Positions 1,034 through 55,300 of a stretch of DNA of 64,000 nt are shown piece by piece. Positions within the stretch are counted from its first letter, which is position 1. Each line of letters starts with the position of its first letter. Source of the stretch: Squalus acanthias (lineage: Eukaryota); NCBI GenBank assembly GCA_030390025.1, contig CM059431.1, positions 104,286,001 through 104,350,000 on the forward strand, in the 5' to 3' direction. A model generated the notes under the pieces. It was not told the DNA's origin and did not search any database. It saw nothing but the letters and a program-made list of their open reading frames with translations. The position numbers and the translations under genes are program-made.

Positions 1034-1292
1034 GTGTCATCTGTGGCTCAGTTGGTAGCACCCTCACCTCTGAGTCAGAAGGTTGTGGGTTCAAAGTCCC
1101 ACTCCAGAGACTTGAGCACAAAATTCTAGGCTGACACTTCCAGTGCAGTGCTGAGGGAGCGCCGCACTGTCGGAGGTGCTGTCTTTCGGATGAGATGTTA
1201 AACCAAATCCTCGTCTGCTCTCTCAGGTGGATGTAATTTATCCCACGGCACTGTTTCGAAGAAGAGCAGGTGCATTATCTCTGGTGTCCTGG
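1034..1292 (+). mobile_element. DeuSINE (SacSINE1-like), 5' half only
   Basis: tRNA-like head GTGGCTCAGTTGGTAGCA...GGTTCAA and core GTCTTTCGGATGAGATGTTAAACC; matches the full copy at 34649-35117; breaks off at 1292. Confidence 0.8.
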
Positions 1293-1318
1293 CATCCGAT
1301 CAAGCTGCGCAGCACGAG

Positions 1319-2401
1319 GTGTGCGTGCTTTACGGGGCGTGGTTACTGGGCGAGGGCCGCAGTAATTTGGAGGATTTAAAACAAGGTTTGGTCCCGTCCT
1401 GGATAAGTAACAAACACCTGCGGGCGCTCCACCCTTTTCAGAACGCATTAAGTCCGTGCCAGCTCAGGCTAGCTTCAGAAGCTTACCCAGTCCCCGTGGA
1501 CTGCGGACGATCAAACCATACTATTATGGGAATAGTATTACGCATGCCGGTTTTGGGCGACACAGCAAAGCCCGCCCCGGTGTATCGGGTAGAGAACATT
1601 GGTGTCATTCAGGGGGGAGCCCACATTCGTTACGCAGCGGTTCCACCTTACGTCATCCGCTGGGAGCAAACGATGACAGGTACAGATCTCTCTGGTTGTC
1701 GTGGCAGGGGAGCACACATAATACTGTGCCCCCAGCACTTGAATGCCTTTTTAACACCACAGTGCGGGTTCAGAACGACTGGCGCCAAGTCCATGAATTG
1801 CACCATGGAGGCAATGGCACAAGATCATGTGCCTCCGCAGGTAGCATACATCGGGGGTGGAACATATTGTGTTACCACTGCAGCGCAACACTACCAGCAT
1901 GGAAACCGTAGCCGGTGTCCGGTGAGTGACAGCAGTTTCTGTTTTAAACCCAGGGCGGAAGTTCAAGTAGCACAACAGCGAATTATCCCAATCCCTGAAC
2001 CATCCACTGTTCATCTCACAGTAAAAGAGAATTTCACCGACTTGCAGCGATTCGTCGCGCATTTTGGATACCTCATTCCCCCTCTCCCTGAACACCTCAC
2101 CAAACTTTTAAAAGCCGTCGCGGTGTCACAGAAACACTTTTACACATTAGAACAGAAAACTGTCGAAATAGGAACAGACATTCTGGATATAGTAGTTCCA
2201 CCGTGGTGGAATCTGTTCACTAATATTGAAGTGCCTTCATGGATCAGAATAGCCTCCCACATTTTAGTCGTATGCCAAGTTTTCATTGTAGTGTACCTAT
2301 TGGTCGTACATTGTAAAAGAGACAAGCGCCTCACCAAGCATGAAAACACGGGAGAGTGGCGAGAACGTTACGTGCGCGTGCACGATGAAAGCACCGTGTG
2401 A
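1319..2401 (+). CDS. env: C-terminal ~360 aa of a retroviral-like envelope/fusion glycoprotein (open frame, N-terminus deleted)
   Basis: Cys-rich ectodomain, heptad region, TM IASHILVVCQVFIVVYLLVV, short tail; about 20 aa differences from the minus-strand copy by eye. Confidence 0.8.
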   Translation: MCVLYGAWLLGEGRSNLEDLKQGLVPSWISNKHLRALHPFQNALSPCQLRLASEAYPVPVDCGRSNHTIMGIVLRMPVLGDTAKPAPVYRVENIGVIQGGAHIRYAAVPPYVIRWEQTMTGTDLSGCRGRGAHIILCPQHLNAFLTPQCGFRTTGAKSMNCTMEAMAQDHVPPQVAYIGGGTYCVTTAAQHYQHGNRSRCPVSDSSFCFKPRAEVQVAQQRIIPIPEPSTVHLTVKENFTDLQRFVAHFGYLIPPLPEHLTKLLKAVAVSQKHFYTLEQKTVEIGTDILDIVVPPWWNLFTNIEVPSWIRIASHILVVCQVFIVVYLLVVHCKRDKRLTKHENTGEWRERYVRVHDESTV

Positions 2402-2852
2402 TCGGAAAATGGCGTCACTCCCGCTCGCCACGTGCGCCGCGGAAGTTTGTACTCGATGATGATTTTCAGAGATTGTAAATACGTTGGGAACTCGACACGT
2501 TTTGAGAGTTGGTGTTGATTATTTTGGTGATGGTGTTACAGTTAAAAATGATTGTTTGGTTTTGGGTTTTGTTTTTCCTTTCCCTGAATAAAAGATGAAT
2601 ATACAGGTGATACGAGAGGCATCGGCCTGGTTACGCCGGGAAGGAAAACAAGTGGTGTAAGTTTAAGGGCAAATAATGCCTACGGTGATATAAAATGTAA
2701 TTTTCTTGGGAAATAAGGACGACACAGAGACCCTAGCTAGGTTAAATTTTATGGGATTAATTTGCTGGATTCGGAGAGAAATCGAGATAATATTGCTCAC
2801 CACTATGATTTTTGATACGATAAGCGGAGTTATTCGCATCAACAGGAGGGAC

Positions 2853-4510
2853 TGTAGAATTCGCAATATATCGCGATTTTATTAATAAGGAGAAAACACA
2901 GAGTTTCGTTCAAACAGCTTTTATTTCAGCAGAATGCTGGCAGGTTTAAAGTGGACACAAGCAGCCTGTAAAATGGCCGCCGCACCTCGTGACAGAACAT
3001 TCTAGACTTTTCAACAGGCAGACAAGATGGCGTTCCAATAAACATTTGTGCAAGATCGATTAAGATTCAGCACAGTGAAGATAATACACGAGACATTATG
3101 GGTTTGCAGTATACACATAGATACTGAAATCGGTCTCCCAGGTACAAAGGAAAGCCATTGTACCGAGTAATCAAGGGCCCATCCAAAAGACATTAATATG
3201 TAAAATCCCAACGACTCTACGATGAGAGAGCCGTTAGCAGGTAGTTTTACATTCAATTGGAAGCCCCAAACCCCTCCAGGGAGAACACCGACCGATTTAA
3301 CAATGGGAGAGCTATTAACAGGTACTCAGACATTTACGAGTAGCCCCGAAACCCATTAAGAACGGAGATCACCCATACAAGACATTTGAGCGCCAGATCT
3401 TAAACAAAAGAATGGACATTATAGTTGGGCGGGAAACGGAAGATTTTTGCACTATAATTGCAGGCTCCAAACCGTCCATCTTTCTCTTGCTGCTCTTATC
3501 ATCGTGGCTGCTCCTGTGCTCTTGTTTTTGTAACCTCGTGGCTGCTCCTGTGTACTCGTAGTTGGGCTCGCTCCTGCTTGCCTGTTGCCTCTTCTGAAAA
3601 GACTGTTGAACTTTCTGATCCGTTCGGATCTACCTCGTGTCGCGTAACGAAGACCTATATTGGTAACCGGTATCGGAACCAAAAGGCCCGAGATGAGATG
3701 AGATGAGATGAGATGAGAAGAGAGGAAGACCATATCCATCGCCACGGTCAGTAAATCCCGACCGCGCCTGTAGGTCGATTAGCCAAGTTTTCCTTGCCAG
3801 GAAGACTTCTTCGAACTTGCAAAGAAACATATCGTATCGATGATATCGACAACTGTGCTCGAAGAGTACCTGTTAAACCAACCAACACAGGTCTTCATCA
3901 CAGCAGACGTTCCAGCCTGCTAGCCGGAGCAGCAGAAGCAAGTAAACAAGCGGGACCAGGAGATCTCCTGACCGACACGTGGGTGCTGCGGTGAAAAACA
4001 TCCGAGCAGCTATTCGGAATTTCTCCGAGTTATCACGAGTGGTGAGCATGAGTCTCGAGATCCTACGAATCTAGTTTAGGATAGATATTGATAGGGGAGG
4101 GTTTAAGGATTAAGGATATTTGTAATGTGTGCCCCTATTTACTTTGTGCCGTTCGTTCCTCGTTTCCCTAAGATCGACTATATAACTGTTTGTAAGATTG
4201 TACTGTCATTAATCTGTGCTTATGACATGTATTTCATAATCTTAAGTATCATGCAATAAAGATTTTCCATTTCGTACCATTCAAACCGAGTCTACATGAG
4301 TTTCATCTCCATTACTGCTCTCGCATCTAAGTCCAGTGTCTAGAACCGTAAGGGAGAGTGATTCGAACCACTCACAGGTGTGTCTAGTGTTCCCAGACTG
4401 GCTGGAGACCAGAACAGGCAACGAGGCCTAGACCCGCACTGACATACAGGCTGCACAGAGCCGCGTGAATCTCACAGGCTGCGAGACACGCACGGTCAGA
4501 ATCCCTTACA
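2853..4510 (+). repeat. 3' LTR (1658 bp) of the truncated element
   Basis: TG..CA termini, follows the PPT, AATAAA at 4255-4260, (GAGAT)n at ~3690-3717, patchy homology to LTR 12698-14358. Confidence 0.85.
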
Positions 4511-4633
4511 TGTGCTAATATCTCCTGACGTGGCTCGATATCGAATTCTGTCTAATTACGCTCCTGTGAAGAGCCTTGGGATGTTTTACTCCATTAAAGG
4601 CGCTATATAAATGCAAGATGTTGTTGTTGTTGT
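4511..4633 (+). mobile_element. L2-type LINE 3' tail
   Basis: CTCCTGTGAAG..CCTTGGGA..AAAGGCGCTATATAAATGCAAG(TTG)n, as in the other L2 tails in the window. Confidence 0.75.
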
Positions 4634-4637
4634 TAAG

Positions 4638-6753
4638 TGTAAGGGGTTTCGGTCGTAGGTACTTGTGCGGGGTTAGGCCTTCGTTGCCTAATACTATTGC
4701 TTGCTCTGGTCTCCAGCCAGCCTTGTTGCAATAAGCACCTGTGAGTGGTTCGACCCACTCGCCCTTACGGTTCTAACACTGGACTTAGGTGCGAGAGCAG
4801 TAATGCAGAGAAAAACTCAAATAGACCCGGTTGAATAGTACGAAATGGAAATCTTTATTGCATAACGTCCAAAATCATGAAGTACATGTCATAGGCACAA
4901 ATTAATGACATTACAAGTATACATACATTCATAAAACTTGGTCTAGGGTAATGAGGAACGCACGGCACATCGTAAAAAGGGGAACACATTATATTTATCC
5001 TTAATAAAATCACCCTCCCCTATCAATACCTACACTAATCTAGATTTGTAGGATCGAGGAAACATGCTCACCACTCGTGATACTTCGGAGAATTTTAAAG
5101 TAAGGCACTCGGCTTGTTTCGCTGCAACACCTGACCGTCACGTGTTGGAAAGGGTCTCTGTACCCCACTTGTTTATCTTCTCTGATCCGGCTAGCAGGCT
5201 GGGCTCCCCGTTGTCATGAAGAACTCGACAGTGCTCGGGGCCCGGCTGTAGAACTCAAAGAAAAGTCTTTCTGGACCGACACCAGTTGTCGATAGAATTC
5301 GAAGAAAAGTCTTTGACCAGTTCATGCAGTAACCTGTAGAGTTCAAAAATGGTCTATATATTTTCGGGCGCGGTCGGGGTTTACTGACCGCGGCGGCACG
5401 TGGATTCTTCTTCTTCTCTTCTCATCTCGTCTCGTCTCATCTCTTCGGGCCTTCGGGTCCAGAACACCGTTTACCGACCCTCGGGATGGTGCACCCGGTC
5501 ACTGGCCTTCGTTGAGGCGGCTCGCTCCAAATTGAGCTCCACCCAACATAGGAGAATAAAAGTTCAGCCCGCGTCCAGAGTCAGTTCAAATGAATCAGCC
5601 CCGGGAGGATCAGAGGAATAAGAGAGTTCAGCAGCCAGCAGCAAGATAAGAGTCAAGAGCCAAGAGACCGATGGACATTTGTGCTGTGTTCCCTTATCTC
5701 CCACCCAAATCTTAATGTTCATCCTTTGTAAAATCTTGGCGCTCAAAATTCCCAGTATGGGGTGATTCTTTCCTTTAATGGGTTTCGGTAGCACCTTAAA
5801 CTGGCCAACTATCCGTTGGGCAACACGGTGGCATAGTGGTTAGCACTGGTGCCTCACAGCGCCAGGGACCCGCGTTCGAATCTGACCTCGGGTGACTGTC
5901 TGTGTGGAGTTTGCACATTCTCCCCGTGTCTGCGTGGGTTTCCTCCGGGTGCTCCGGTTTCCTCCCACAGTCCAAAAATGTGCGGGTTAGGTTGATTTGG
6001 CTATGATAAATTGACCCTTAGTGTTAGGGGGTGTTAAATATGTGGGGTTACGGGGATAGGATAGGATATGTTAGGGGGAATTAAATACGTGGGGTTACGG
6101 GGATAGGGTGGGATATGTGTCGGTGCAGGCTCGATGGGCCGAGATGGCCTCTATCTGTACTGTGGGGATTCTGTGTGAGAAAGCAGGGACAGGGTACTGG
6201 ATTTGGATGATCAGCCATGATCGTATTGAATGGTGGAGCAGGCTCGATGGGCCGAATCTCCTGCTCCTAGTTTCTATGTTTCTATGTAATGTTTTCCCCA
6301 TTGTCGAGCCGGCTAGGAGTCTCCCTGACTGGTTTTGGGGCCTCCTCGAATACTGACTTAATCACCTGAGAATGGCTCTCTCATTGTAGAGCCGTGGGGA
6401 ATTTGCGTATTGATGTATCTGGATGGGCCTTCGATTGCCCAGTACAATGGTCCTTACTTGTGCATGGAAAATGATTCCAGCACTTATCTCTTGCTATTTT
6501 GTCGAATGCAGACAGGTTGCATCCTGTCTTTATCAGTGTTTGCTGCGTATTAACCAATCTTATACTGAAATGTTTATTCGAACGCCATCTTGTCTGCCCA
6601 CTGTATTCTGGAAGCTTCTGCCACGATGCTCGGCGGCCATTTTACAGGCTTCTGTGTCCTTTATATCATGACAGCATTTCGTTGAAATAAAACTGATGAA
6701 ACGAATCTGCTTCTATCTCGTTATTTCGAATCGCGATAATTGCGAATTTTACA
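4638..6753 (-). repeat. 3' LTR (interrupted by a SINE at 5818-6287)
   Basis: Direct repeat of 12698-14358 with roughly 20-25 substitutions and one 16-bp indel by eye; minus-strand AATAAA at 4854-4859. Confidence 0.95.
5818..6287 (+). mobile_element. HE1-like V-SINE inserted in the 3' LTR
   Basis: tRNA head, V-domain TGTGTGGAGTTTGCACATTCTCCCCGTGTCTGCGTGGGTTTCCTCCGG, CR1-type tail (TTTCTATG)n; absent from the 5' LTR. Confidence 0.9.
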
Positions 6754-6765
6754 GCCCCTCCTGTT
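6754..6765 (-). promoter_or_regulatory. Polypurine tract
   Basis: Minus strand AACAGGAGGGGC directly before the LTR TGT. Confidence 0.8.
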
Positions 6766-7185
6766 GATGCGAATAACTCCGCTTATCGTATCAATTAAAA
6801 GTTGTGGTGAGCAAAATTATCCCGATTCTCCACATCCAAACACTCCCTTAACTTAAACTATCTAGGGTCTCCATGCCGTCCTCATTTCCCAGGGAAAATT
6901 ACATTATCTAACTTGGACAAAACCGTAGGCAGTATTGCCTTTTAAACTTACATCGCGTATACGTCTTCCAGGTGCAACAGGCCGATGCCTCTCGCACCAC
7001 CTGTATATGTATTTTATTATACAAGGAAAAAACTAATCAAACAACCATTTTAACAATACAAAAGTTAAAAATAATCAAACAACTCTTTTAAAATACAAAG
7101 TTCCAGACTTGGTTACATATCTACATAACTGAACAATCAATTACAAAACACACATGGTAAAATGGAGCGGCGTCATCCTGGCCGT

Positions 7186-9535
7186 TTACGCGGCGCTTTC
7201 CTCGTGCATGCGCACGTAACGTTCTCTCCACTCTCCTGTGTTCTCCTGCTTTGTGAGGCGCTTGCCTCTCTTGCAGTGCACGACCAATAGGTACACTACA
7301 ATTATTACTTGGCACACAACTAAAATGTGGGAGGCTATCCTGATCCATGAAGGCACTTCAATATTGGTGAACAGGTCCCACCACGGTGGGATTACTATGT
7401 CTAGAATTTCTGTCCCTATCTCGACAGTCTTTTGTTCTAGGGTGTAAAAATGTTTTGCGATACCGCGACGGCTTTCAAAAGCTTGGTGAGGTGTTCAGGG
7501 AGAGGGGGAATGATGTATCCGAAATGCGCGACGAATCGCTGCAAGTCGGTGAAATTCTCTTTTACTGTTAGATGAACAGTGGATGGTTCAGGGATCGGGA
7601 CAATTCGCTGTTGTGCCACTTGAACATCAGCCCTGGGTTTAAAACAGAAACTGCTGTCACTCACCGGACACCGGCTGCGGTTTCCATGCTGGTAGTGTTG
7701 CGCTGCAGTGTTAACGCAATATGTTCCACCCCCTATGTATGCCACCTGCGGAGGTACATGATCTTGTGTCATTGCTTCCATGGTGCAATTCATGGGCTTC
7801 GCACCAGCCATTCTGAACCCGCATTGTGGTGTTAAAAAGGCATTCAAGTGCTGGGGACACAGGATTATGTGTGCTCCCCGGCCACGACAACCTGAGAGAT
7901 CGGTACCTGTCATTGTTTGCTCCCAGCGGATGACGTAAGGTGGGACCGCTGCGTAGCGAATGTGGGCTCCCCCCTGAATGACACCAATGTTCTCCACCCG
8001 ATACACCGGGGCGGGCTTTGCTGTGCCGCCCAACACCGGCATACGTAACACTATACCCATGATGGTATGGTTTGACCGTCCGCAGTCCACGGGGACTGGG
8101 TATGCCTCTGAGGCTAGCCTGAGCTGGCACGGGCTTAATGCGTTCTGAAAAGGGTGGAGCGCCTGCAGGTGTTTGTTACTTATCCAGGACGGGACCAAAC
8201 CTTGTTTTAAATCCTCCAAATTACTGCGGCCCTCGCCCAGTAACCATGCCCCGTATAGTACGCACACCTCGTTCTGCGCAGCTTGATCGGATGCATTCCG
8301 ATCTTCCCTAATCAGGGCATTTACCGTTCTCGCATGCTTCTCCAGTTCTGCTATAATTTCCTTTAAGTGTAGCGTCATGGCCTGGTCCTCATGTAACTCA
8401 GACCCTACTACCTTGTTTTCGCTTGTGAGGATGCTTTTTAATTGTGTTTTTAAACCATTGATCTGGGTCTGCAGCTCCACGTTGTCTAGAGCGTTGACCA
8501 CAGATGTTCCTGTATTAAAGGCGGTGAACATATCGTTCACAATACCCCTTCTTTGTCTCCCCACCTGACCCAAAACTTCGTGTGGTGTGGTGTACAAGCT
8601 TGTCTTGTCAATCTCTGCAAAATCAAACTCGTAGAATTGTCTGAACATGTTTGTCAACAGGACCTGGTACAATTGTTCCGTCTCTTTGGGGCACCACTCT
8701 GGCAACCGCACCTCAGTGAGATTTAAAATCACCGAGGCCACCGCGTAATGTACCCCCTGAAATAGTATCTGGTCTGTTGGGACCAGTACCAAACCATTCC
8801 CGGGCCCCTTAGTGGTTTTAGGGCACCCTTCCTCCTGAGCCAAAACCACCGGAATCGTGGGCGGGCCTTGCGTGGGCGCGTGATGAGTTCAGTGGCGTTT
8901 ACCGGGATCGGGGAGTATGGAGCTCCGCACCCCCTGGTGCTGACATCCCACCTCATCCCTTTCCCGTTATCCTGCCACTGGTTTACAAAAAATATGGATA
9001 TACCCTTGGGGCAAACGTACTTCGATCCCCACATACAAATATATATTCCCTCATCCGGTTCCCACCATTTGTCCCAACAGACTTTCAATTGTCCGTTAGT
9101 CCCCGTAATTGTCCGATGGGTATTGTTACCCAATCGCTCCCACTCAACCGAGGAATTTCTCATATTCTTGCTCAATTTCCATAACCACCACCATCGGCTC
9201 AATGGGACCTTCCCATTGCATGTCAAACAAATCCTTTTGCCGACGGTGACGCTGATTCTGGGGGCAATGATCCTCACTCTGGGGCACAGTAAAGAAGTCT
9301 CTTTGTAGGCAAATCCCGATGCACTGGAGTATTCCATTGAATTCGTTCCCAGCCATCCCGGCCACCTTCCCTTGTGGAAATAAGTGGCGGTCTCCTCAGC
9401 CTTTCGCTTCCCGGTCCCATCCGTCACGATGGGGGCCGTGTCCCCGGAGCAACCAAACACAACGACATCCTTGGTGAGGCCCCGATAGGCCAATCCATAT
9501 CCGATCGCTGCGAGCACTATCAGAATCCGTTCCAT
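7186..9535 (-). pseudogene. env: env: signal peptide + Ig-like domain + T/P linker + furin-cleaved fusion glycoprotein + TM; two 1-nt frameshifts (~8878, ~7452)
   Basis: MERILIVLAAIGYGLA signal; C..W..DEGIYIC Ig motif; RQRR|GIVNDMFTAFNTGTSVV followed by a heptad repeat; the 3' frameshift is resolved by comparison with 1319-2401 and the frame ends EESAA*. Confidence 0.8.
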
Positions 9536-9547
9536 CTTTCCTGGTTC

Positions 9548-9570
9548 CTGTGATCAGATAAAATGATGAA
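9548..9570 (-). promoter_or_regulatory. Putative splice acceptor for env mRNA
   Basis: Minus strand TTCATCATTTTATCTGATCACAG|GAACCAGGAAAG-ATG. Confidence 0.55.
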
Positions 9571-9812
9571 GCCAGCCTCCCCAGAGTCTCTGGCTTTTGT
9601 GAAGGGTGAGTGGGTCCCTTGACCTCGTCTCACGTATAACGACATGTATGCTGGATAGACTTTAACTATTCCTATCTCTAAACTCCCATCATTTATCTTT
9701 TACTTTTAAAATTAAACTACCAACTTACCAAACTTACAAACTATGACTTAAACTTATAACTTATCCTTAACTTATAAACTGTACAGCGCTGCCCGTTCCC
9801 AGGGCGGCCTAC

Positions 9813-10892
9813 CTAAATTCTGCGAAGGCTGCCACAAGGTTTTCCCAACAGTGGGAGGGCACTGACCCCTTCCTTTGATCTGCCGCAGCCTGTCGCTGCT
9901 GCGCTGGGACTGGGATCTCCCTGGGCTGCCTTGACCTTGAACTTACGCCTGGGGGCATACGGGGGACTTGACCACGCCTTCCTGGGCTGGGGTGTCCGAC
10001 CTGACCTACGGAGGGCTACATTGGACAAGGTTTCCAGGGCCGACGGACCGGGTACCGAGACTTCCACCGTCGCGGCCTGTGGTCCCACCACAGCCGCTGG
10101 CTCCGTCTCCCCTGGCTCCGCCTCCCTGAACTCGGGATTTGCAGTTTCTGGTACCACCCTGCTTGGCCCAGTATGTGGTCCTCCACTCGCAATCCCTACC
10201 TCCCCCAAGGGCAAGACTTCCAGGGCTGACGGACCGGGTTCCGAGACTTCCACCGTCACGACCTGTGGTCCTACCACAGCCGCTGGCTCCGTCTCCCCTA
10301 GCTCCGCCCCCCTGGGCTCGGGACCTGCAGTTTCTGATTCCACCCTGTGTGGATCTCCACTCGCAATCCCTATCTCCCCTAAGCTTGAGTCGAGGACGAA
10401 CCTTTCGTCCTCCGATCTCAGCACCTCTCCGATCGGGTCACTATCTTGGTCGAGCTCCTCGAGCTCTTCCTCATCAGAATCCCAACCCCAAGAAAAGATC
10501 TTACACATTCCTAGAATGTCCTCTCCGCTCAAGCAGGCTGCTTTACCGGTCTGTGTGCCCTGCTGTCCTGCTTGGGGCTCAGAGACCCCACTCGCAGGAC
10601 TGGCCCCTCCCCTAAGACAGGCCACCGCCCCTGCTTGTGCATTCTGTGAAATCTCGCCTGCTGGAGGCTGCAGATTTCTATTCTGTTTTAAATCCTCATA
10701 CTCCCTGCTCCTGGCTACCCTGTAGGCTGCTTTTATGTCTCTAAGCTGCCCTTCTAGCCCGTCTACTTTCCCCATTAAACGGGCGTTCTCCTCCCGTAAG
10801 GCCTGCTCTTTTAACCTGGCCTCCTTACAGGAGACCCCCTCCTGTGCGTGTCTTTCAAGGGGACACAGGTAGGCAGGCTGCACCGGTTCCAG
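9813..10892 (-). CDS. ORF2 in the pol position: coiled coil + acidic/Pro-rich repeats, no enzymatic domain; in frame with gag after TGA-CTG
   Basis: Open ~359 codons; coiled coil similar to the Gag N-terminal region; ~60-aa tandem duplication; LRRSGR..P motif near the end. Confidence 0.6.
   Translation of the reverse strand: MEPVQPAYLCPLERHAQEGVSCKEARLKEQALREENARLMGKVDGLEGQLRDIKAAYRVARSREYEDLKQNRNLQPPAGEISQNAQAGAVACLRGGASPASGVSEPQAGQQGTQTGKAACLSGEDILGMCKIFSWGWDSDEEELEELDQDSDPIGEVLRSEDERFVLDSSLGEIGIASGDPHRVESETAGPEPRGAELGETEPAAVVGPQVVTVEVSEPGPSALEVLPLGEVGIASGGPHTGPSRVVPETANPEFREAEPGETEPAAVVGPQAATVEVSVPGPSALETLSNVALRRSGRTPQPRKAWSSPPYAPRRKFKVKAAQGDPSPSAAATGCGRSKEGVSALPLLGKPCGSLRRI
10027..10384 (-). 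repeat. Two-unit ~180-bp coding tandem duplication in ORF2
   Basis: LGE(I/V)GIASG...ETEPAAVVGPQ..TVEVS.PGPSALE occurs twice. Confidence 0.85.
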
Positions 10893-12693
10893 TCAGAAGT
10901 CTGGGTTGTATGGGGCTGTTGCTACCTCCCCGTGCGAAATCATAAGAGATCGCATGGCTCCTAACATTGATTCTATCGCATCGGGATGGATAGGCACACC
11001 AGCTCCTTTCTCAGAGACAGGCGCTTGGGTTCGGACTGCGGGAGCTTTTTCCCTGGAATCCTTCCAGGGATTCCTGCAGTTTTTACGCCAGTGACCTGTC
11101 TTTCCGCACCCGTAAAAAGCACCACTGGCCTGTGGGGCGCGGTTTCCCTCCTGATGCCACTCCTTTTGAGCCGGGGCTGCGGGCCGTACCTCATGCACCT
11201 TTCCCTTAAGGGGACACGCTCCCGTGCTCCTAGTGTTCCGATACCCTATCGTGAGTCGATTTAGGACCGACTCCTCTGTTGTGGCGGGGTTAGTGGGATC
11301 AAACCATGCTTTGGCCTGCTCCCTGACAGCTGGCAAACTGTTGGCTACTAAACACCTGAGCCAATGAGTTAAACCGGCACCGTCCAAATAATCGCGCCCT
11401 GGCGCACCTGGGCAGCTACGCTGGTATACTGGCCACAGCCTGTCGGCGAAAACCTTCGGGGGTTCTCCCTCCATCTCAACTGTCTGACCCAATCTAACGA
11501 ACGGACCTTCGTCATCCGCCCCTAACACTTCTAGGACCTCGTCCCTTAACTTCTCATAGGTATTATTTCCCCTCTTGCTCTCGACTGAGAGACACTGAAG
11601 GATCGAGCTATCTAACGAGAACAGCAACATTTTAGTCTTTTCCGCATCGTCGCAGCCATTAATTGCTGCGGTCTGTTCTACCTCCCTGAAGTGTACGGAA
11701 GGGTCGTCTGACTCAGACAGCTTCCGTACATGACTAATCATCGCTCTCAGCTGGTGTGAGCTGTGAGGCAACACAAGCTGGTTCAGGACATCCCCGTCTG
11801 CCCCATTGTCTCCGTTCGGGCCCCTCTTGTGACCTGTAAGCGGACACAACGGTCCCGGCTTTCGACACTACCTCTGGGGATTGTCCTACCTCGGGGACCT
11901 CCTCTTCTATTTCCACCACTTCCTTCCTTACCCAGGTTGCCGAATAGCTGGGTGGCGCAGAGGGCGCAGTGGCAAATACCTCCTCTGCTTTGTCTGGTAG
12001 GGATTTTGGGAATTCCCTACCCACCTGTGGCTGGTGTGCTGACGGGCTGATGAGGCACACCATGCCGTTTGCCTTATTCAGGGTCTCTCTTAGGCTCCCT
12101 ATCTCCTTCTGGCAAACACTGTGGTCGGCTCCCTCATGCTTATCTTCGAGGGCCATCTTATATGCCGCCCTAACTCCCTTCAAGCTTTCTTCTTGGGCTC
12201 TTATCTGGGTAGCTAGGCGAGCACACCGTTCTCTAATCCTACCCTCGTTTAACTTCGCTTCTGTGACCTGACACTCTAGTTAATCTATTTTAGCCTCATG
12301 GTGGTTGGCTACTATCTGGCGTTCCTGATGTAACGCATTCAAGGATGCGATGAGTTTCTGTCCTCCCGTGACCTTTTCCTCCATCTCAACTTCCAATTCC
12401 CTGATCTGAGCTGCCTGTGCTACAATGACCTGGTCCGAAAGTTGGACTTGCTTCTTGTAGCACATCAGCCAGACCGCTTTCTCTACCGACTTCTTATGCT
12501 CTTTACTGTCTGTCCATTTGATGGCTGCGTCTAGCGGACGCTTATCCATCAGCAGGTCACTTATCCACCTTTTGGTTAAGTTAACCTTCCCAAACACATA
12601 GTCGGCTACCCTCTCATCCATCACATTTCGCCTATTCACACCAGGGTCTAAAACATTACTCTCTCGCTGCCAGCCTCGTGCCGCGGTCGCCAT
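10893..12693 (-). pseudogene. gag: gag (coiled-coil N-terminus, capsid-like domain, degenerate CCHC knuckle); one in-frame TAA (12280-12282) and one frameshift (~11850-11900)
   Basis: ORFs 12280-12693 and 11734-12183 are in one frame; 10893-11849 has capsid-like DPSVHFREVE and EGEPPKVFADRL, and F-YGCGKTGHWRKNC. Confidence 0.8.
12675..12692 (-). promoter_or_regulatory. Putative primer-binding site overlapping the gag ATG
   Basis: LTR-CA GAAAA TGGCGACCGCGGCACGAG; the first 8 nt fit a tRNA-Arg(TCG)-type 3' end (from memory). Confidence 0.5.
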
Positions 12694-12697
12694 TTTC

Positions 12698-14358
12698 TGT
12701 AAGGGGTTTCGGTCGTAGGTGCTTGTGCGGGGTTAGGCCTTCGTTGCCTAATACTATTGCTTGCTCTGGTCTCCAGCCAGCCTTGTTGCAATAAGCACCT
12801 GTGAGTGGTTCGACCCACTCGCCCTTACGGTTCTAACACTGGACTTAGGTGCGAGAGCAGTAATGCAGAGAAAAACTCAAATAGACCTGGTTGAATAGTA
12901 CAAAATGGAAATCTTTATTGCATAACGTCCAAAATCATGAAGTACATGTCATAGGCACAAATTAATGACAGTACAAGTATACATACATTCATAAAACTTG
13001 GTCTAGGGTAATGAGGAACGCACGGCACATCGTAAAAAGGGGAACACATTATATTTATCCTTAATAAAATCACCCTCCCCTATCAATACCTACACTAATC
13101 TAGATTTGTAGGATCAAGGAAACATGCTCACCACTCGTGATACTTCGGAGAATTTTAAAGTAAGGCACTCGGCTTGTTTCGCTGCAACACCTGACCGTCA
13201 CGTGTTGGAAAGGGTCTCTGTACCCCACTTGGTTATCTTCTCTGATCCGGCTAGCAGGCTGGGCTCCCCGTTGTCATGAAGAACTCGACAGTGCTCGGGG
13301 CCCGGCTGTAGAACTCAAAGAAAAGTCTTTCTGGACCGACACCAGTTGTCGATAGAATTCGAAGAAAAGTCTTTGACCAGTTCATGCAGTAACCTGTAGA
13401 GTTCAAAAATGGTCTATATATTTTCGGGCGCAGACGGGGTTTACTGACCGCGGCGGCACGTGGATTCTTCTTCTTCTCTTCTCATCTCGTCTCGTCTCAT
13501 CTCTTCGGGCCTTCGGGTCCAGAACACCGTTTACCGACCCTCGGGATGGTGCACCCGGTCACTGGCCTTCGTTGAGGCGGCTCGCTCCAAATTGAGCTCC
13601 ACCCAACATAGGAGAATAAAAGTTCAGCCCGCGTCCAGAGTCAGTTCAAACGAATCAGCCCCGGGAGGATCAGAGGAATAAGAGAGTTCAGCAGCCAGCA
13701 GCAAGATAAGAGTCAAGAGCCAAGAGACCGATGGACATTTGTGCACTATAGTTATAGTGCTGTGTTCCCTTATCTCCCGCCCAAATCTTAATGTTCATCC
13801 TTTGTAAAATCTTGGCGCTCAAAATTCCCAGTATGGGGTGATTCTTTCCTTTAATGGGTTTCGGTAGCACCTTAAACTGGCCAACTATCCGTTAATGTTT
13901 TCCCCATTGTCGAACCAGCTAGGAGTCTCCCTGACTGGTTTTGGGGCCTCCTCGAATACTGACATAATCACCCGAGAATGGCTCTCTCATTGTAGAGCCG
14001 TGGGGAATTTGCGTATTGATGTATTTGGATGGGCCTTCGATTGCCCAGTACAATGGTCCTTACTTGTGCATGGAAAACGATTCCAGCACTTATCTCTTGC
14101 TATTGTGTCGAATGCAGACAGGTTGCATCCTGTCTTTATCAGTGTTTGCTGCGTATTAACCAATCTTATACTGAAATGTTTATTCGAACACCATCTTGTC
14201 TGCCCACTGTATTCTGGAAGCTTCTGCCACGATGCTCGGCAGCCATTTTACAGGCTTCTGTGACCTTTATATCATGACAGTATTTCGTTGAAATAAAACT
14301 GATGAAACGAATCTGCTTTATCTCGTTATTTCGAATCGCGATAATTGCGAATTTTACA
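12698..14358 (-). repeat. 5' LTR (1661 bp)
   Basis: TG..CA termini; direct repeat of 4638-6753. Confidence 0.95.
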
Positions 14359-15097
14359 TAAGAGCGACTGTTGTCTTTACGATGACAGGCCATACAATGG
14401 GAATCAAAAAGCCCAAAGCACATGTCAGTGAGCTTGTTCCTGTTGAGTCAAAAACAACGGGCATCGATGTTCTGTCAGTCCCAAATAGTTGGTTCCTTGC
14501 TGAATTATTTTTTTTCTCCTTCTTTTCTCTCTGCTGTTGTAAAGGAACTGATGCTGTACAGTGAACGCTGTAACCAAATGAGACATTGCCGTTACTCATT
14601 AACATGACAAAACGAGCCTGTGCTGTGAAAAAAATAACACGCAAGTCTTTAAAGCGGCTTCAATTGTGCCTTATAATGTATGCAGATCACACTGGGGTTT
14701 GATAGGGAAATCACAGGTTGCCTTACGTTAGTCGAGTCTGCCCTGCTCTAATTAGTTTAATTAGTGCTTTAGTCACTGTGCGGTAATCCATTATGACTGT
14801 GGTTAATTAACTCTGGAATAGATGAGTTTGCAATAATTACACCTAAAGTCACTTTGGGTGGATGTTGAATCTGGACAAGCCCATGATATTGGTCCCAAAT
14901 TCTTCAACTCCTTAATCAGCGCTTGGCAGCCATTGGCATTAAATACCGACACACGAATCTTCAATAAATGTTTCAGTTAGATTCAGCAGAAGCTGCACCC
15001 AAATTTTTCGAATGCTGTAGCAACGTCTTAATACTACCAAACATTAATGTTTCATTTAATGGAAAATAGTAGCTGGGCACTTTTCTGATTTTAAAAA

Positions 15098-15497
15098 AAA
15101 TTCATTCACAGGATGCGGGCGTCGCTGATTCCTAATTGCCCTTGAGAAGGTGGTGGTGAGCCACCTTGTACAACTGAGTGGCTTGCTAGGCCATTTCAGA
15201 GGGCAGTTAAGAGTTGACCAACATTGCTGTGGGTCTGGAGTGACATATAGGCCAGACTGGGTAAGGACAGCAGATTTCCTTCCCTAAAGGACATTAGTGA
15301 ACCAGATGGTTTCATTAATGACACATCCAGTCGTTTCATGGCCACCATTATTGATACTAGCTTTTTATTCCAGATTTATTGAATTGAATTTAAAAATTCT
15401 CCAGCTACCATGGTGGAGATTTAAACTCATGTTGCTACAGATCATTAGTCCAGGCCTCTAGGATTATGAATCCCATAACATAACCACTACACTACCT
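15098..15497 (-). mobile_element. tRNA-derived SINE with a tail shared with the CR1-like LINE at 17250-19335
   Basis: Minus-strand head GTAGTGGTTATGTTA...GAGTTTAAATCTCCACC; tail CACCACCTTCTCAAGGGCAATTAGG. Confidence 0.65.
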
Positions 15498-15870
15498 GCT
15501 TAACAAATGAATGACTTAACTATTAACTACTTTAGCAATAAACGTTGCCGCCAGTCATTAAGCCTGACTGCAAAATGTAAGCACGGAGCAAAACCACCCA
15601 AATTCAAATTATCTTGCCAAGTCTATTCCAACAGTGCTGTGTACGGGCAAATGTCATCGATATATTTTCATAACTAGAGCTGCTTGAAATGTTGTGTTCT
15701 GTGGGGATTTTTTGCACTCCACATAATACAATAATAGTGTTATCAGTGCAAACGTGGTTATCAAAAGGGGCATATTCCCAGCTTCAATTCCTTTCTTATC
15801 CATCAATTTTTAAAAACTTATATTTACTAAGTTCCTGTGATAGGAATTTAGACTAGCGCTGTGATTAAAT

Positions 15871-17249: not shown

Positions 17250-19335
17250 TGTATTACACCACAATCTGTAACCTCATGGCCCAGCATATCCCTCACTCTA
17301 CCATTGCCATCAAGCCAGGGGACCAACCCTGGTTCAATAAGGAGTGTAGAAGAGCATGCCAGGAGCAGCACCAGGCGTACCTAAAAATGTGGTGCCAACC
17401 TGGGGAAGCTGCAACACAGGACTATATGCATGCTAAAAAGTGGAAGCAGCATGCTATAGACAGGGCTAAGTGATCCCACAATCAACGGATCAGATCAAAG
17501 CTCTGCAGTCCTGCCACATCCAGTCATGAATGGTGGTGGACCATTGAACAATTAACGGGAGGAGGAGGCTCCATGAATATCCCCATCCTCAATGATGGTG
17601 AAGCCCAGCACATGAGTGCAAAAGATGAGGCTGAAGCGTTTGCAAGCATCTTCAGCCAGAAGTGCCGAGTGGATGATCCATATCAGCCTCCTCCTGAGGT
17701 CCCCACCATCACAGAAGCCAGTCTTCAGCCAATTCGATTCACTCCACGTGATATTAAAAAACAGCTGAGCACACTGGAAACAGGAAAGGCTATGGGCCCC
17801 GACAATATCCCGGCTATCGTGCTGAAGACTTGTGCTCCAGAACTAGCTGCGCCTCTAACTAAGCTATTCCAGTACAGCTACAACACTGGCATCTATCTGA
17901 CAAAGTGGCAAACTGCCCAGGTATGTCCTGTCCACAAAAGGCAGGACAAATCCAATCCGGCCAATTACCGCCCCATCAGTCTACTCTCAATCATCAGCAA
18001 AGTGATGGAAGGTGTCATCGACAGTGCTATCAAGTGGCACTTACTCACCAATAACCTGCTCACTGATGCCCAGTTTGGGTTCTGGCAGGATCACTCGGCT
18101 CCTGACCTCATTACAGCATTGGTCCAAACATGGACAAAGGAGCTGAATTCCAGAGGTGAGGTGAGAGTGACTGCCCTTGACATCAAAGCAGCATTTGAAC
18201 GAGTGTGGCATCAAGGAGCCCTAGTAAAACTGAAGTCAATGGGAATCGGGGGGAAAATGCTCCACTGGCTGGAGTCATACCTAGCACAAAGGAAGATGGT
18301 TGTGGTGGTTGGAGGTCAAGCATCGCAGCCCCAGGACATCGCTGCAGGAGTTCCTCAGTGCAGTGTCCTAGGCCCAACCATCTTCAGCTGCTTCATCAAT
18401 GACCTTCTGTCCAACATAAGGTCAGAAATGGGGATGTTCGCTGATGACTGCACAGTGTTCAGTGCCATTCACAACTCCACAGATAATGAAGCAGTCCATG
18501 CCCGCATGTAACAAGACCTGGACAACATTCAGGATTGGGCTGATAAGTGGCAGGTAACATTTGCGCCACACAAGTGCCAGGCAATGACTATCTCCAACAA
18601 GCGAGTGTCTAACCACCTCCCCTTGACAGTCAATGGCATTACCATCGCCGACTCCCCCTCTATCAATATCCTGGGGGGTCAACATTGACCAGAGACTTAA
18701 CTGAACCAGCCACATAAATACTGCGGCAACAAGAACAGGTCAGAGGCTAGGTATTCTGCAGCGAGTGTCTCACCTCCTGACTCCCAAAGCCTTTCCACCA
18801 TCTACAAGGCACAAGTAAGGAGTGTGATGGAATACTCTCCACTTGCCTGGATGAGTGCAGCTCCAACAACACTCAAGAAGCTTGACACCATCCAGGACAA
18901 ACCAGCCCGCTTGATTGGCACCCCATCCACCACCTTAAACATTCACTCCCTCCACCACTGGCGTACCGTGGCTGCAGTGTGTACCACCTACAAGATGCAC
19001 TGCAGCAACTCACCAAGGCTTCTTTGGCAGCACCTCCCAAACCCGTGACCTCTTCCACCTAGAAGGACAAGGGCAGCAGGCGCATGGGAACACTACCATC
19101 TCCAATTCCCCTCCAAGTCACACACCATCCTGACTTGGAAGTATTTCGCCGACCCTTCATCGTCGCTGGGTGAAAATCCTGGAACTCCCTCCCTAACAGC
19201 ACTGTGGGAATACCTTCACCACACAGACTGCAGCAGTTCAAGAAGGAGGCTCATCACCACCTTCTCAAGGGCAATTAGGGATGGGCAATAAATGCTGGCC
19301 TTGCCAGCGACGCCCACATCCCATGAACAAATTTT
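17250..19335 (+). mobile_element. 5'-truncated CR1-group LINE with decayed RT ORF2
   Basis: AMGPDNI, NYRPISLLS, QFGF, GVPQCSVLGP and FADD motifs (17573-18511); stops and frameshifts. Confidence 0.9.
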
Positions 19336-30524: not shown

Positions 30525-31387
30525 ATTTTTTTTTAATTCGTTTATGGGATCTGGGCGTCGCTGGCAAGGCCAGCATTTATTGCCCATCCCTAATTGCCCT
30601 CGAGAAGGTGGTGGTGAGCCGCATTCTTGAACCGCTGCAGTCCGTGTGGTGAAGGTGCTCCCACAGTGCTGTTAGGGAGGGAGTTCCAGGATTTTGACCC
30701 AGCGACGATGAAGGAATGGCAACATATTTCCAAGTCAGGATGGTGTGTGACTTGGAGGGGAACTTGGAGGTGGTGGTGTTCCCATGTGCCTGCTGCTCTT
30801 GTCCTTCAAGGTGGAAGAGGTTGCGGGTTTGGGAGGTGCTGCCAAAGAAGCCTTGGTGAGTTGCTGCAGTGCATCTTGTAGATGGTACACACTGCAGCCA
30901 CTGTACGCTGGTGGTGGAGGGAGTGAATGTTTAAGGTGGTGGATGGGGTGCCAATCAAGCGGGCTGCTTTGTCCTGGATGGTGTCGAGCTTCCTGAGTGT
31001 TGTTGGAGCTGCACTCACCCAGGCAAGTGGAGAGTATTTCATCACACTCCTTACTTGTGCCTTGTAGATGGTGGAAAGGCTTTGGGGAGTCAGGAGGTGA
31101 GACACTCACTGCAGCATACCTAGCCTCTGACCTGCTCTTGTTGCCACAGTATTTATGTGGCTGGATCAGTTACGTTTCTGGTCAATGCTGAACCCCAGGA
31201 TGTTGATGGTGGGGGATTCAGCGATGGTAATGCCGTTGAATGTCAAGGGGCGTAGGTTAGACTCTCGCTTGTTGGAGATAGTCATTGCCTGGCACTTGTG
31301 TGGCGCGAATGTTACCTGCCACTTATCAGCCCAAGCCTGAACGTCGTCCAGGTCTTGTTGCATGCGGGCATGGACTGCTTCATTATC
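30525..31387 (-). mobile_element. CR1-group LINE 3' fragment (family of 17250-19335)
   Basis: QQDLDDVQAWADKWQVTFAPHKC; YKAQVRSVMKYS. Confidence 0.88.
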
Positions 31388-31471
31388 AAGGACAGAATAA
31401 TCTATCAAATACACAATTGCAAGTAATACCAGCAGCATATATTGAAAAGGAATGGATAATATAATACATCT

Positions 31472-31930
31472 GAAAGAAAGACGTGCATTTATGTAACGCC
31501 TTTCATGACCACTGGACGTCCCAAAGCGCTTTACAACCAATAAAGTACTTCTGAGGTGTAGTCACTGTTGTAATGTAGGAAACACGGCAGCCAATTTGTG
31601 CACATCAAGCTCCCACAAACAGCAATGTGATAATGACCAGATAATCTGTTTTTCTGGTGATGTTGGTGATGGATAAATATTGGCCCAGGACACCGGGGAG
31701 AACTCCCCTGCTCTTCTTTGAAATAGTGCCATGAGAACTTTTACATCCACCTGAGAGAGCAGACGGGGCCTCGGTTTAACGTCTCATCCAAAAGACAGCA
31801 CCTCCGACAGTGCAGCGCTCCCTCAGTACTGCACTGGAGTGTCAGCCTAGATTTTTGTGCTCAGGTCTCTGGAGTGGGACTTGAGCCCACAACCTTCTGA
31901 CTCAGAGGCGAGAGTGCTATGGCTGACACA
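31472..31930 (-). mobile_element. DeuSINE (SacSINE1-like), near full length
   Basis: Homology to 34649-35117. Confidence 0.85.
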
Positions 31931-48059: not shown

Positions 48060-49693
48060 TGCTTCAGCCTGTACACCCTTTTAAAAAAACAAATCTGTGT
48101 GCATGCACTAAGCATGCTCTTCCCAGTTTCATCTAGCTGAAGGGGAGCCAGAACGGTATGCTTGTCATTATTTTTGCGTTGTGGGGTCAGGAGGTTGCAG
48201 GGTTCCAACAAAAATAACGTAGCTCTGTCCTGCACAAGGTCCCTGGCCCCCTCCACGAATGACCAAAATTTGCACCCACCTATGGCAGGTGTATTGAAAT
48301 TGTTATAAAGAGGTTTACAATTTCCCCATATACGAGACTCAGAAGAAATTGTCACCCAACGTTAACGACTTAACAACTGACAACGTACTGTATAACCAAT
48401 TACAATTTTGTGCACCAATAATCTGCAAGCCTAAAACTCTCGCTTTGCCAGTGAAGTGGCCTGCTCACAATAACAATCTCTAACGTAAATAAAATAAGAC
48501 CTGCATTTATATAGCGCCTTTCATGACCACCGGACATCTCAAAGCGCTTTACAGCTGATGAAGTACTTTTGGAGTGCAGTCACTGTTGTAATGTGGGAAA
48601 CGCAGCAGCCAATTTGCGCACAGCAAGCTCCCACAAACAGCAATGTGATAATGATCAGACAATCTGTTTTTAGTGAGGATGGTTGAGATACAAATATTGG
48701 CCAGGACACCTGGGAGAACTCATAGAAACATAGAAACATAGAAGATAGGAGCAGGAGTAGGCCACTCGGCCTCTCTAGCCTGCTCCACCATTCAATGCGA
48801 TCATGGCTGATCATCCAAATTCAGAACCCTGTCCCTGCTTTCTCCCCATATCCCTTGATCCCTTTAGCCTTAAGAAATATATCCACCTCCTTCTTGAATA
48901 TATTTAATGAATTGGCCTCTACTGCCTTCTGTGGTAGAGAATTCCACAGGTTCACCACTCTCTGGGTGAAGAAATTCCTCCTCATTTCTGTCCTAAATGG
49001 CTTACCCCTTATCCTTAGACTGTAACCTCTTGTTCTGGACTCCCCTGCCATCGGGAACATCCTTCCTGCATCTAGTCTGTCCAGTCCTTTCAGAATTTTA
49101 TAAGTTTCAATGAGATCCCCGCTCATTCTTCTAAACTCCAGCGAGTATAAGCCCAATCGACCCAATCTCTCTTCATACGTCATTCCTGCCATCCCAGGTA
49201 TCAGCCTGGTGAATCTTCGCTGAACTCCTTCCATGGCAAGAACCTGCTTCCTCAGATAAGGCGACCAAAACTGCACACAATACTCAAGATGTGGTCTCAC
49301 CAAGGCCCTGTACAACTGCAGCAGGACATCCTTGTTCCTGTACTCAAACCCTCTCGCTACGAAGGCCAACATACCATTTGCCTTCTTAACCGCCTGCTGC
49401 ACCTGCATGCTTACCTTCAGCGACTGGTGCACAAGGACACCCAGGTCTCGTTGCACTTCCCCTTCTCCCAATCTATTGCCATTCAGATAATAATCTGCCT
49501 TCCTGTTTTTGACACCAAAGTGGATAACCTCACATTTATCCATGTTATATTGCATCTGCCATGCTTCTGCCCAATCATACAACCTGTCCAAATCATCCTG
49601 GAGTTTCTCGGCATCCTCCTCACAGCCCACCCAGCTTTGTGTCGTCAGCAAACTTGGAGATATTACATCTAGTTCCCTTGTCTAGATCATTAA

Positions 49694-54154: not shown

Positions 54155-55300
54155 ATTAATATATATTGTGAATAGCTGGGGTCCAAGGACCGATCCCTAC
54201 GGTACCCCACTAGTCACTGCCTGCCACTCGGAAAAAGACCCGTTTATTCCAACTCTTTGCTTCCTGTCTGCGAACCAGTTCTCTATCCAAGTCACTACCT
54301 TGCCCCCAATCCCATGTGCCTTAACTCCCCTGCTCTTCTTCTAAATAGTGGCTGTGGGATCTTTAACGCCCACCTGAGAGAGCAGACGGGGCCTCGGTTC
54401 AACATCTCATCCGAAAGACGGCACCTCCGCCAGTGCAGCGCTCCCTCGGCACTGTACTGGGAGTGTTAGTCTGGACTTATGTGCTCAAGGTCCTTGGAGT
54501 GGGAATCTGAACCCACAACCTTCTGGCTCAGAGGTAAGTGGTGCTACCCACTGAGCCACAGCTGACACTGCTACAATCATTGCTGTACTGCAATTTATGT
54601 AGCTCCCTCATTAATAGAGAAACCGAATGAAGCCTCACCTTTAACCGGACTCTTGATGAAACGTTATTTTTGAATAGCTCCCAAAAACCACTTTTTAATG
54701 AGAGGATGCTATATTTGTATTAGCCATGTACTTGTGATTTTTCTAATTTGCTTCATCAAATGGGAATATTGCAATGCTATGTATCAAATTGAGAATGTTT
54801 TCCACAGAGACCGAGAAAGGTTAAGGCTCTGTTTGTATTATATATCATCTTAGACAAGGTGAAAACAAGTACTAGACGATTCAATTCCCTTTCTGACGTG
54901 TACATCAGTTGTTATCAATGCTCCGGCCACCTGTATGTTGTAAAATTATGCAAATAGATGTAATGGTGCTATTTATCAGGGACTTTTGTGAGGTCAGGTC
55001 AATGCTGATTAACTAATTATTCTGTTGCATATCGCTATGGACAGCGGGATTTTATGATATTAGAAAAGCAGTAGGAACTTTGCTGATCTGAATATTAATT
55101 GATGAGCTATTGTAGTATTTTAAATCATTCAATTATGTAAATATTGACTGAAGTGTGGACCCCAGTTCAGCAAGGACCCGCATAAATCCTTCGAGAAATC
55201 ATGCAGATGATAATGACTCAAAACATTACTGAAGTGCTAATCGCCAAGCTGTACGTCAATCATGGGTTTTAGCAAACTCGATAATGCAAATGTCGGACAT

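Follow-up and report, generated by a model that had tools for sequence, protein, structure and literature searches.

How could a retrovirus-like element that has no pol gene have been copied and inserted, with intact termini, into the genome of a cartilaginous fish? The question is raised by an element on the minus strand of a 64,000-nucleotide stretch of Squalus acanthias DNA (GenBank assembly GCA_030390025.1, contig CM059431.1, positions 104,286,001 to 104,350,000), which is called the window below. An earlier reading, made from the letters alone (the sequence-only reading), had found gag and env but no enzyme gene in the element, and had proposed that it was mobilised as a non-autonomous or bipartite partner of an unseen autonomous virus. 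Non-autonomous mobilisation was supported by the analysis reported here. As judged from sequence comparisons, the element very probably belongs, as a decayed copy, to a non-autonomous family of pol-deleted endogenous retroviruses (ERVs), designated family B, which kept its cis sites, gag and env and was spread by complementation in trans. The autonomous relatives are not unseen: two pol-bearing families (A and C), whose primer-binding site (PBS), polypurine tract (PPT) and long terminal repeat (LTR) termini match, are abundant in the same genome.

Family B and its cis sites

The 3.7-Gb Squalus acanthias assembly was searched, and the best ~40 places per query were scored. When gag plus the open reading frame (ORF) occupying the pol position (the pol-slot ORF) was used as query, 42 match rows were obtained at the best 40 places, 35 of them full-length with 93-100% identity, and the junction between gag and the pol-slot ORF was spanned at 40/40 places. 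Twelve loci were then fetched. All 12 had the pol-less layout, as the sequence-only reading had suggested should be checked across independent insertions. In nine of them gag to env was covered by a single alignment; the remaining three comprised one env deletion, one gag insertion and one locus cut off past the ORF. The pol-slot ORF was open in eight of the 12 copies (359 aa in seven, 358 aa in one), and all three frames were open in two. Both ends could be read in four fetched loci (L022, L023, L024 and L032), which together with the window copy displayed four distinct target-site duplications (TSDs): CTTA, AATA, CTTG and CCAT. AATA was common to L022 (contig C2339) and L023 (contig C16), whose flanking bases were also identical. 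Three LTR pairs of the B type were present among the best 40 LTR matches, all spaced 7.5-8.1 kb apart. Substitution identity between the two LTRs was 99.5, 99.2, 99.2, 98.6 and 97.3% in five B copies and 98.7% in the window copy, a range indicating that B insertions happened repeatedly over a period. The pol deletion is a family trait across independent insertions.

Single loci of the family deserve separate mention. L032 carries LTRs that are only ~87% identical over their aligned part, and its 5' LTR starts with TGTAGA as in family A; this copy is possibly an inter-family recombinant provirus. On contig C3 (~64,284,918-64,312,636) five matches to gag plus the remnant ORF lie on one strand at ~6.4-kb spacing and 94% identity, as if a unit resembling family B had been repeated there in tandem.

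Self-comparison of the window over 3500-15500 detected two direct repeats bounding the element, and the ends read from them (TG...CA, flanked by CTTA on both sides) reproduced exactly the span and the 4-bp TSD named earlier (Table 1). Because all long ORFs of the element are on the minus strand, the repeat at the higher coordinates is the 5' LTR. The LTRs had been described as near-identical and 1.66 kb long. Outside an insert 21 substitutions were counted over 1646 aligned bases (98.7% identity), besides a 16-bp and a 1-bp indel, so the near-identity stands, whereas the length applies to the 5' LTR only: the 3' LTR is longer because a 469-bp dispersed repeat landed in it. This repeat has at least 40 full-length genomic copies with 96-98% identity, and was found neither in the 5' LTR nor in 12 other family-B copies. 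ARAGORN and Rfam gave no tRNA call on it, tRNA-like box motifs being recognizable only by eye.

The PBS-like site and the PPT were likewise confirmed, the former 5 nt past the 5' LTR and the latter, AACAGGAGGGGC, abutting the 3' LTR. Only the first 14 nt of the window-copy PBS match the 3' end of tRNA-Arg(TCG), whereas other copies match over the full 18 nt. Among 13 family-B copies four carried TGGCGACCACGAAGGGAC or nearly this sequence, six the window form or nearly so, and one TGGCGACCGCGGCAGGAC, as in family A, while in the remaining two no PBS was detected. The TGGCGACCACGAAGGGAC and TGGCGACCGCGGCAGGAC variants match the 3' ends of two different tRNA-Arg(TCG) gene variants of the host genome. 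One of these gene variants is present in 426 genomic copies, largely in 1.6-kb tandem arrays on contig C26. Paired LTRs, TSD, PBS and PPT, the cis sites expected of a mobile provirus, are thus all intact in the element. The internal region between the LTRs is just 5944 bp long, too short to accommodate pol.

The start codon of gag (12691-12693) shares bases with the beginning of the PBS, so that PBS and gag are not separated by an untranslated leader. An ATG overlapping the PBS was also read at L029 (position 4011) and L033 (position 107), the frame from this ATG is conserved across the three families A, B and C, and P0017, an unrelated protein from the database, aligns to Gag from residue 1. 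With this arrangement R/U5 or gag itself must be where the packaging signal and the splice donor for env are located. No joint of the env-splice type was seen in four runs made up of contigs of uncertain kind, a negative from which no conclusion is drawn.

Pol-bearing relatives and the remnant in the pol position

Adjoining the element, window positions 3600-4450 are only ~81% similar to part of its LTR and belong to family A. The best 40 genomic matches of the family-A LTR were 96-100% identical, and the family is very young. Ten same-strand pairs of this LTR were found, five at ~11.1 kb, three at ~7.7 kb, one at 6.96 kb and one at 14.9 kb. One ~11.1-kb pair (L033) and one ~7.7-kb pair (L034) were fetched and checked. 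L033 contains gag, a TGA, an in-frame pol of 1507 aa and an open env of 783 aa. Pfam recognized in its Pol protease (PR), reverse transcriptase (RT), a tether-type RNase H-like domain, RNase H, and the zinc finger, core and SH3 domain of integrase (IN). With L033 pol as query all 39 scored places were ~100% identical, and 37 were without a stop. Families A and B are 72% identical in Gag and 92% in Env, and their PPT and LTR termini are almost identical.

The database protein P0047, which is 87% identical to family-A Pol, was also used as a query. All 40 other scored places matched it, 35 without a stop, and these constitute family C, which was read from two stretches of one place (L038 and L039). 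Family-C Gag is 86.7% identical to that of B and 72.9% to that of A. The family-C PBS consists of the same 18 nt as in several B copies, the gag stop reads TGA-CTA-G, PR has the motif DTGA, and the first 50 codons of env, the part that was read, are present. Families A and C thus each occupy at least ~40 loci with mostly open pol frames, and both are autonomous relatives with matching cis sites in the same genome. Dozens of near-identical helper copies with open pol point to a deep-branching lineage that was active in the germline very recently or still is.

Comparison with these relatives showed what occupies the pol position in family B. The sequence-only reading had noted a long open, non-enzymatic ORF in place of a ragged deletion. 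The ORF (359 codons, 9813-10892) is indeed open and directly in frame past the gag UGA stop, but it is a pol remnant and no foreign gene. Its residues 1-12 correspond to the first 12 residues of family-A Pol and residues 96-359 to Pol 1234-1507 (48% identity, E 6e-71), and the family-C pol tail is 73.9% identical to the latter segment. The filler between residues 12 and 96 has no counterpart in family-A Pol. It is a predicted coiled coil and matches residues 145-227 of B Gag (30%, E 4e-5) as well as family-C Gag (37%, E 5e-5). Pol matches at both ends and a Gag-like middle indicate an in-frame internal deletion of pol patched with gag-like filler. This deletion removed PR through most of IN. 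The tail remnant holds a 144-bp tandem duplication (10023-10166 and 10209-10352, 88% identical). The ratio of nonsynonymous to synonymous divergence (dN/dS) was 0.67 for the filler and 0.75 for the tail, suggesting that the remnant ORF evolves almost neutrally under weak constraint.

As claimed before, no PR, RT, RNase H or IN was detectable by Pfam in any of the seven ORFs of at least 100 aa in the window copy, where a weak CCHC knuckle was the sole domain. The three uninterrupted ORFs of another family-B copy were equally free of enzyme domains by Pfam.

The same deletion was found on a second backbone. In L034, the 7.7-kb family-A form, an ORF of 395 codons shows both junctions known from B together with a homologous filler, and the gag, tail and env of L034 are 95-98% identical to those of the autonomous family-A copy. 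Shared breakpoints and homologous filler indicate that a deletion cassette of single origin is carried by two backbones. Synonymous divergence (dS) between A and B was 0.95 in gag, 0.51 in the tail and 0.41 in env, and 0.33 in the filler when B was compared with the pol-deleted family-A form. Such unevenness along the genome would fit recombination between co-packaged genomes.

The structural genes gag and env were both present with the expected domains (Table 1), as had been reported, but neither is intact in the window copy. There gag is cut into three pieces by an in-frame stop (12280-12282) and by a frameshift located within 11818-11861, and env is also in three pieces, with at least two frame changes (in 8729-8888 and 7437-7599). 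Between families A and B dN/dS was 0.18 for gag and 0.10 for env, showing that Gag and Env were maintained as proteins. The purifying selection on env suggests spread by cell reinfection rather than by purely intracellular retrotransposition.

Gag was modelled with AlphaFold2 from a 32-sequence alignment. The model (mean pLDDT, the predicted per-residue confidence, 75) has one long helix at 68-184 and a two-domain helical region at 285-490 preceded by a beta-hairpin. The coiled coil of Gag, named by the sequence-only reading, is thus real as far as the predicted structure goes. When the model was submitted to Foldseek, retroviral capsids came top, with murine leukaemia virus (MLV) first (E 6e-4), followed by HTLV-1, HIV and BLV; Arc capsid domains ranked lower. 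HMMER identified 35 relatives of Gag, all of 636 aa or less, and no longer Gag-related protein of the Gag-Pol fusion type scored in the protein database. Ten of the 35 were looked up, and six had a source name: three were from Scyliorhinus torazame, and one each from Heterodontus francisci, Xenopus tropicalis and the plant Rhodamnia argentea.

Env had been described as F-protein-like. Its cleavage site and membrane anchor are ~360 residues apart, and it has two heptad regions. In a comparison of language-model features, residues 365-783 matched Baculo_F in 20 of 30 cases (best 0.95) and the paramyxovirus-type Fusion_gly in 3 of 30 (0.91), which makes an F-type Env plausible. By contrast hmmscan found no envelope or fusion family, PF00523 included, in B Env at E values up to 10, and no PF00523 in family-A Env at E values up to 0.01. 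The AlphaFold2 model of Env (6-row alignment) had a mean pLDDT of 29.6, too low for a fold search. The word-indexed protein search returned three matches, all from skate or sawshark, of which two are chimeric gene models.

Env residues ~80-175 (window ~9010-9300, minus strand) form an immunoglobulin V (Ig-V)-like stretch, with a Pfam Ig_3 match at E 0.34. A sequence search of PDB with Env gave only seven weak matches (E 0.5-1.7), all to Ig variable-type domains and all in residues 80-175. To judge from these matches the stretch of the surface subunit (SU) may be a captured or convergent Ig-like receptor-binding domain.

Weighing the explanations

Spread of family B by complementation in trans, which we consider very probable, would have involved the following steps. 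PR, RT, RNase H and IN were lost through the in-frame internal deletion of pol. The B RNA would have been packaged by B's own Gag or in mixed particles, and would have been copied and integrated by the Gag-Pol of a co-expressed relative, either family C or an unsampled closer one. Recombination of co-packaged genomes could have moved the deletion cassette between backbones.

Several points weigh against this explanation. Pol-bearing copies with the same LTR and PBS had been proposed as a check; PBS and LTR termini match in families A and C, but no pol-bearing copy with a B-type LTR was found among the best ~40 places per query, either by the spacing of the LTR-B pairs or in the search with the Pol relative. 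The helpers are candidates, named by their similarity. Moreover, B Gag is only 87% (C) or 72% (A) identical to the Gag of the possible helpers, so that co-assembly with their Gag-Pol is not assured. The first copy count was biased, as the query itself included the pol-slot ORF, and it was for this reason that the 12 loci, 10 kb each, were fetched. L022 and L023 may represent a single insertion that entered the assembly twice (a haplotig), or else a segmental duplicate. Finally, base composition may explain in part why the remnant ORF is open, the region being GC-rich with long ORFs in four frames.

The alternatives account for less. If pol had been lost privately at the window locus, after integration of a member of an otherwise autonomous family, the gag stop, the gag and env frameshifts and the repeat in one LTR would be further signs of the same local decay; this is practically refuted by the recurrence of the same junctions at all fetched loci and all scored places, on many contigs and next to differing TSDs. 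Copying at the DNA level, by segmental or tandem duplication, would need neither reverse transcription nor a helper, and could explain the C3 array of five matches with its ~6.4-kb period as well as the shared flanks of L022 and L023. However, the copies lie on at least 15 contigs, and their differing 4-bp TSDs, LTR-LTR divergences (97.3-99.5%) and PBS variants indicate separate integrations, which makes duplication a highly improbable source of the family. Scarcely more credible is a true bipartite system based on mutual need, in which the pol-less element would supply Env (or Gag) to an env-less partner. The strong purifying selection on the env of the pol-less element (dN/dS 0.10) would suit such a division of labour, but the pol-bearing relatives have an env of their own: that of L033 is open, 783 aa long and 92% identical to B env, and the first 50 codons of env are in place in family C. 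The pol-bearing copies lacking env that the sequence-only reading had asked about were not encountered, and no env-less partner was seen.

An explanation with a somewhat better claim, though still an unlikely one, concerns the remnant ORF, which might be a selected new gene whose Gag-UGA-deltaPol readthrough protein acts in assembly, tethering or interference with the helper. The frame is open in eight of the 12 B copies and also in the single family-A copy of the pol-deleted form that was read (395 aa), it always lies in frame past a conserved TGA-CTR-GA context, and both breakpoints and the filler are conserved between backbones. On the other hand dN/dS is near neutral in the tail (0.75) and in the filler (0.67), the tail evolves equally loosely within full-length pol, long ORFs occur in several frames of this GC-rich region, and the tail may have been retained because the 3' end of pol acts in cis, for example as the env splice acceptor.

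Beyond complementation in trans as such, a more far-reaching proposal can be offered only tentatively. Family B could be part of a long-lived 'satellite' retrovirus, in which one pol-deletion cassette persists and recombines across at least two backbones of a still-active, deep-branching, lokiretrovirus-like swarm with a probably F-type Env in a cartilaginous fish; its own Gag and Env would form and target the particles, only the enzymes would be stolen, and Gag-UGA-deltaPol readthrough may replace Gag-Pol and modulate the helper. The family offers a natural system in which to study the persistence of defective retroviruses, their recombination with helpers and, perhaps, their interference with these.

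The positions of the element's parts, and of the family-A fragment beside it, are collected in Table 1. Elsewhere in the window, an unrelated Gypsy-like LTR retrotransposon lies on the plus strand at ~49,692-54,157. Its direct repeats of ~200 bp are 4267 bp apart, and a gag-PR ORF (49945-51180) is followed in frame by an RT-RH-IN ORF (51184-53169). This second LTR element (~49.7-54.2 kb), which has PR, RT, RNase H (RH) and IN, was considered as a partner and rejected, as its Gag has nothing but the zinc knuckle in common with that of the provirus. A Harbinger/PIF-type DDE transposase domain (DDE_Tnp_4, E 2e-32) was found in an ORF at 59042-59857 on the minus strand, which is adjoined by an ORF with a weak Myb/SANT-like match (58058-58459, plus strand). 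RVT_1 fragments were found at 17474-18508 and 31169-31561.

Table 1. Positions in the window of the family-B provirus, its parts and the neighbouring family-A fragment
Feature	Position	Strand	Basis or remark
Complete LTR provirus, copy of family B	4638-14358	minus	self-comparison and termini
TSD CTTA, upstream copy (element orientation)	14359-14362	minus	terminus read
TSD CTTA, downstream copy	4634-4637	minus	terminus read
5' LTR, 1661 bp, TG...CA	12698-14358	minus	self-comparison and ends
3' LTR, 2116 bp, TG...CA	4638-6753	minus	self-comparison and ends
469-bp dispersed repeat inside 3' LTR	5818-6286	plus	post-integration insertion
PBS-like site, tRNA-Arg(TCG) type, 5 nt past 5' LTR	12675-12692	minus	
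gag: N-terminal helical domain, long coiled coil, proline-rich linker with PPSY, capsid-like domain, one CCHC knuckle; TGA at 10893-10895	10893-12693	minus	
First 12 pol codons (LEPxQPxYLCPL), in frame past gag UGA	10857-10892	minus	
Coiled-coil filler, ~70-80 codons, limits approximate	10653-10856	minus	30-37% identity to Gag coiled coil
Post-integrase pol-tail remnant, ~280 codons, acidic, proline-rich, with basic C-terminal end and own stop codon	9813-10652	minus	
env: signal peptide, SU with Ig-V-like stretch, RQRR cleavage site, fusion-peptide-like segment, heptad repeat A, Cys-rich core, heptad repeat B, transmembrane (TM) anchor, short tail	7186-9535	minus	
PPT AACAGGAGGGGC abutting 3' LTR	6754-6765	minus	same tract precedes family-A LTR
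5'-truncated family-A fragment, outside the element, 127 bp away: env 3' part 1292-2398, 1658-bp LTR 2853-4510	1292-4510	plus	

Lineage and comparison with known systems

The affinities of the lineage were judged from family-A Pol, which belongs to a sister family and not to the element itself. Ty3, gammaretroviral and foamy-virus RTs were matched about equally in PDB, and the best integrase match was that of foamy virus. Beside the one database relative at 87% identity, the next nearest was only 33% identical. In a FastTree phylogeny of 34 unlabelled RT sequences, which included no named lokiretrovirus, family-A Pol was basal within a dual-RNase-H clade (support 1.0) and outside the MLVIN_C group. 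Assignment to gamma/epsilon-like (class I) ERVs was rejected, since PF18697 (MLVIN_C) is absent from family-A Pol and its RT falls outside the MLVIN_C-bearing clade. A Ty3/Gypsy errantivirus was also rejected on the dual RNase H of this Pol and the separation of its clade from single-RNase-H sequences (support 1.0). The insect errantiviruses with F-type Env (as partly consulted in bioRxiv 10.1101/2023.10.26.564294) are similar in being LTR retroelements, and the Env features of our element lie near the Baculo_F and paramyxovirus F clusters; they differ in that the sister-family Pol has a retroviral dual RNase H and groups with retrovirus-type sequences.

Lokiretroviruses, as described in the sections consulted of PMC7947760, are similar in several respects. 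They share the gag-pol-env layout, the MLV-like capsid fold and, in Env, a signal peptide, a basic cleavage site, a fusion peptide, a coiled coil and a TM anchor; that the Env here has their F-protein flavour as well is plausible. The lokiretroviral combination of tether plus RNase H, PR and IN in pol is found in family-A Pol, that is, in the sister family of the element. Matches to PF00523 are reported there for lokiretrovirus Env, whereas B Env has none at E values up to 10. The same sections give five vertebrate host classes, and do not mention cartilaginous fishes among them. If the link to lokiretroviruses is confirmed, cartilaginous fish would fill this gap in the host range of the lineage.

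Non-autonomous members are on record for lokiretroviruses as well. According to the part consulted of bioRxiv 10.1101/2024.03.25.586437, the zebrafish elements BHIKHARI (Bik-1 and Bik-2) are non-autonomous endogenous lokiretroviruses with gag only, and ENS-1/ENS-3 of chicken are named as a helper-dependent ERV. Of the cases on record BHIKHARI comes nearest to family B, which resembles it in being a pol-less LTR element with many recent copies and in its ~600-aa Gag, where an N-terminal coiled coil is followed by a capsid domain. It differs in keeping env and an in-frame pol remnant, and in having a CCHC knuckle where Bik-1 has a glycine-rich patch. Because env is present and conserved in family B, a BHIKHARI-type gag-only element was rejected as an assignment. 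No zebrafish protein was identified among the 35 HMMER matches of Gag, for which source names are known in six of the ten looked up. A description of the pol-deleted gag-plus-env layout was not found in the literature consulted on lokiretroviruses and shark endogenous retroviruses, supplements aside.

That defective proviruses can be spread through complementation in trans is well established (PMC10435555, in the part consulted). The kind of system, pol-deleted proviruses riding on helpers, is known, and it is the lineage that is unusual and deep-branching. The interest of the locus lies in an apparently active, deep-branching retrovirus swarm with a probably F-type Env in cartilaginous fish, together with a persistent gag-plus-env satellite lineage.

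The classical helper-dependent ERVs include ETn/MusD, IAP I-delta-1 and the deleted forms of HERV-H. Like family B, these are deleted proviruses in which LTRs, PBS and PPT are retained; they occur alongside the autonomous relatives from which their enzymes come, or outnumber them. Unlike them, family B keeps both structural genes under purifying selection, with only the enzymes gone, and carries the same deletion cassette on two diverged backbones.

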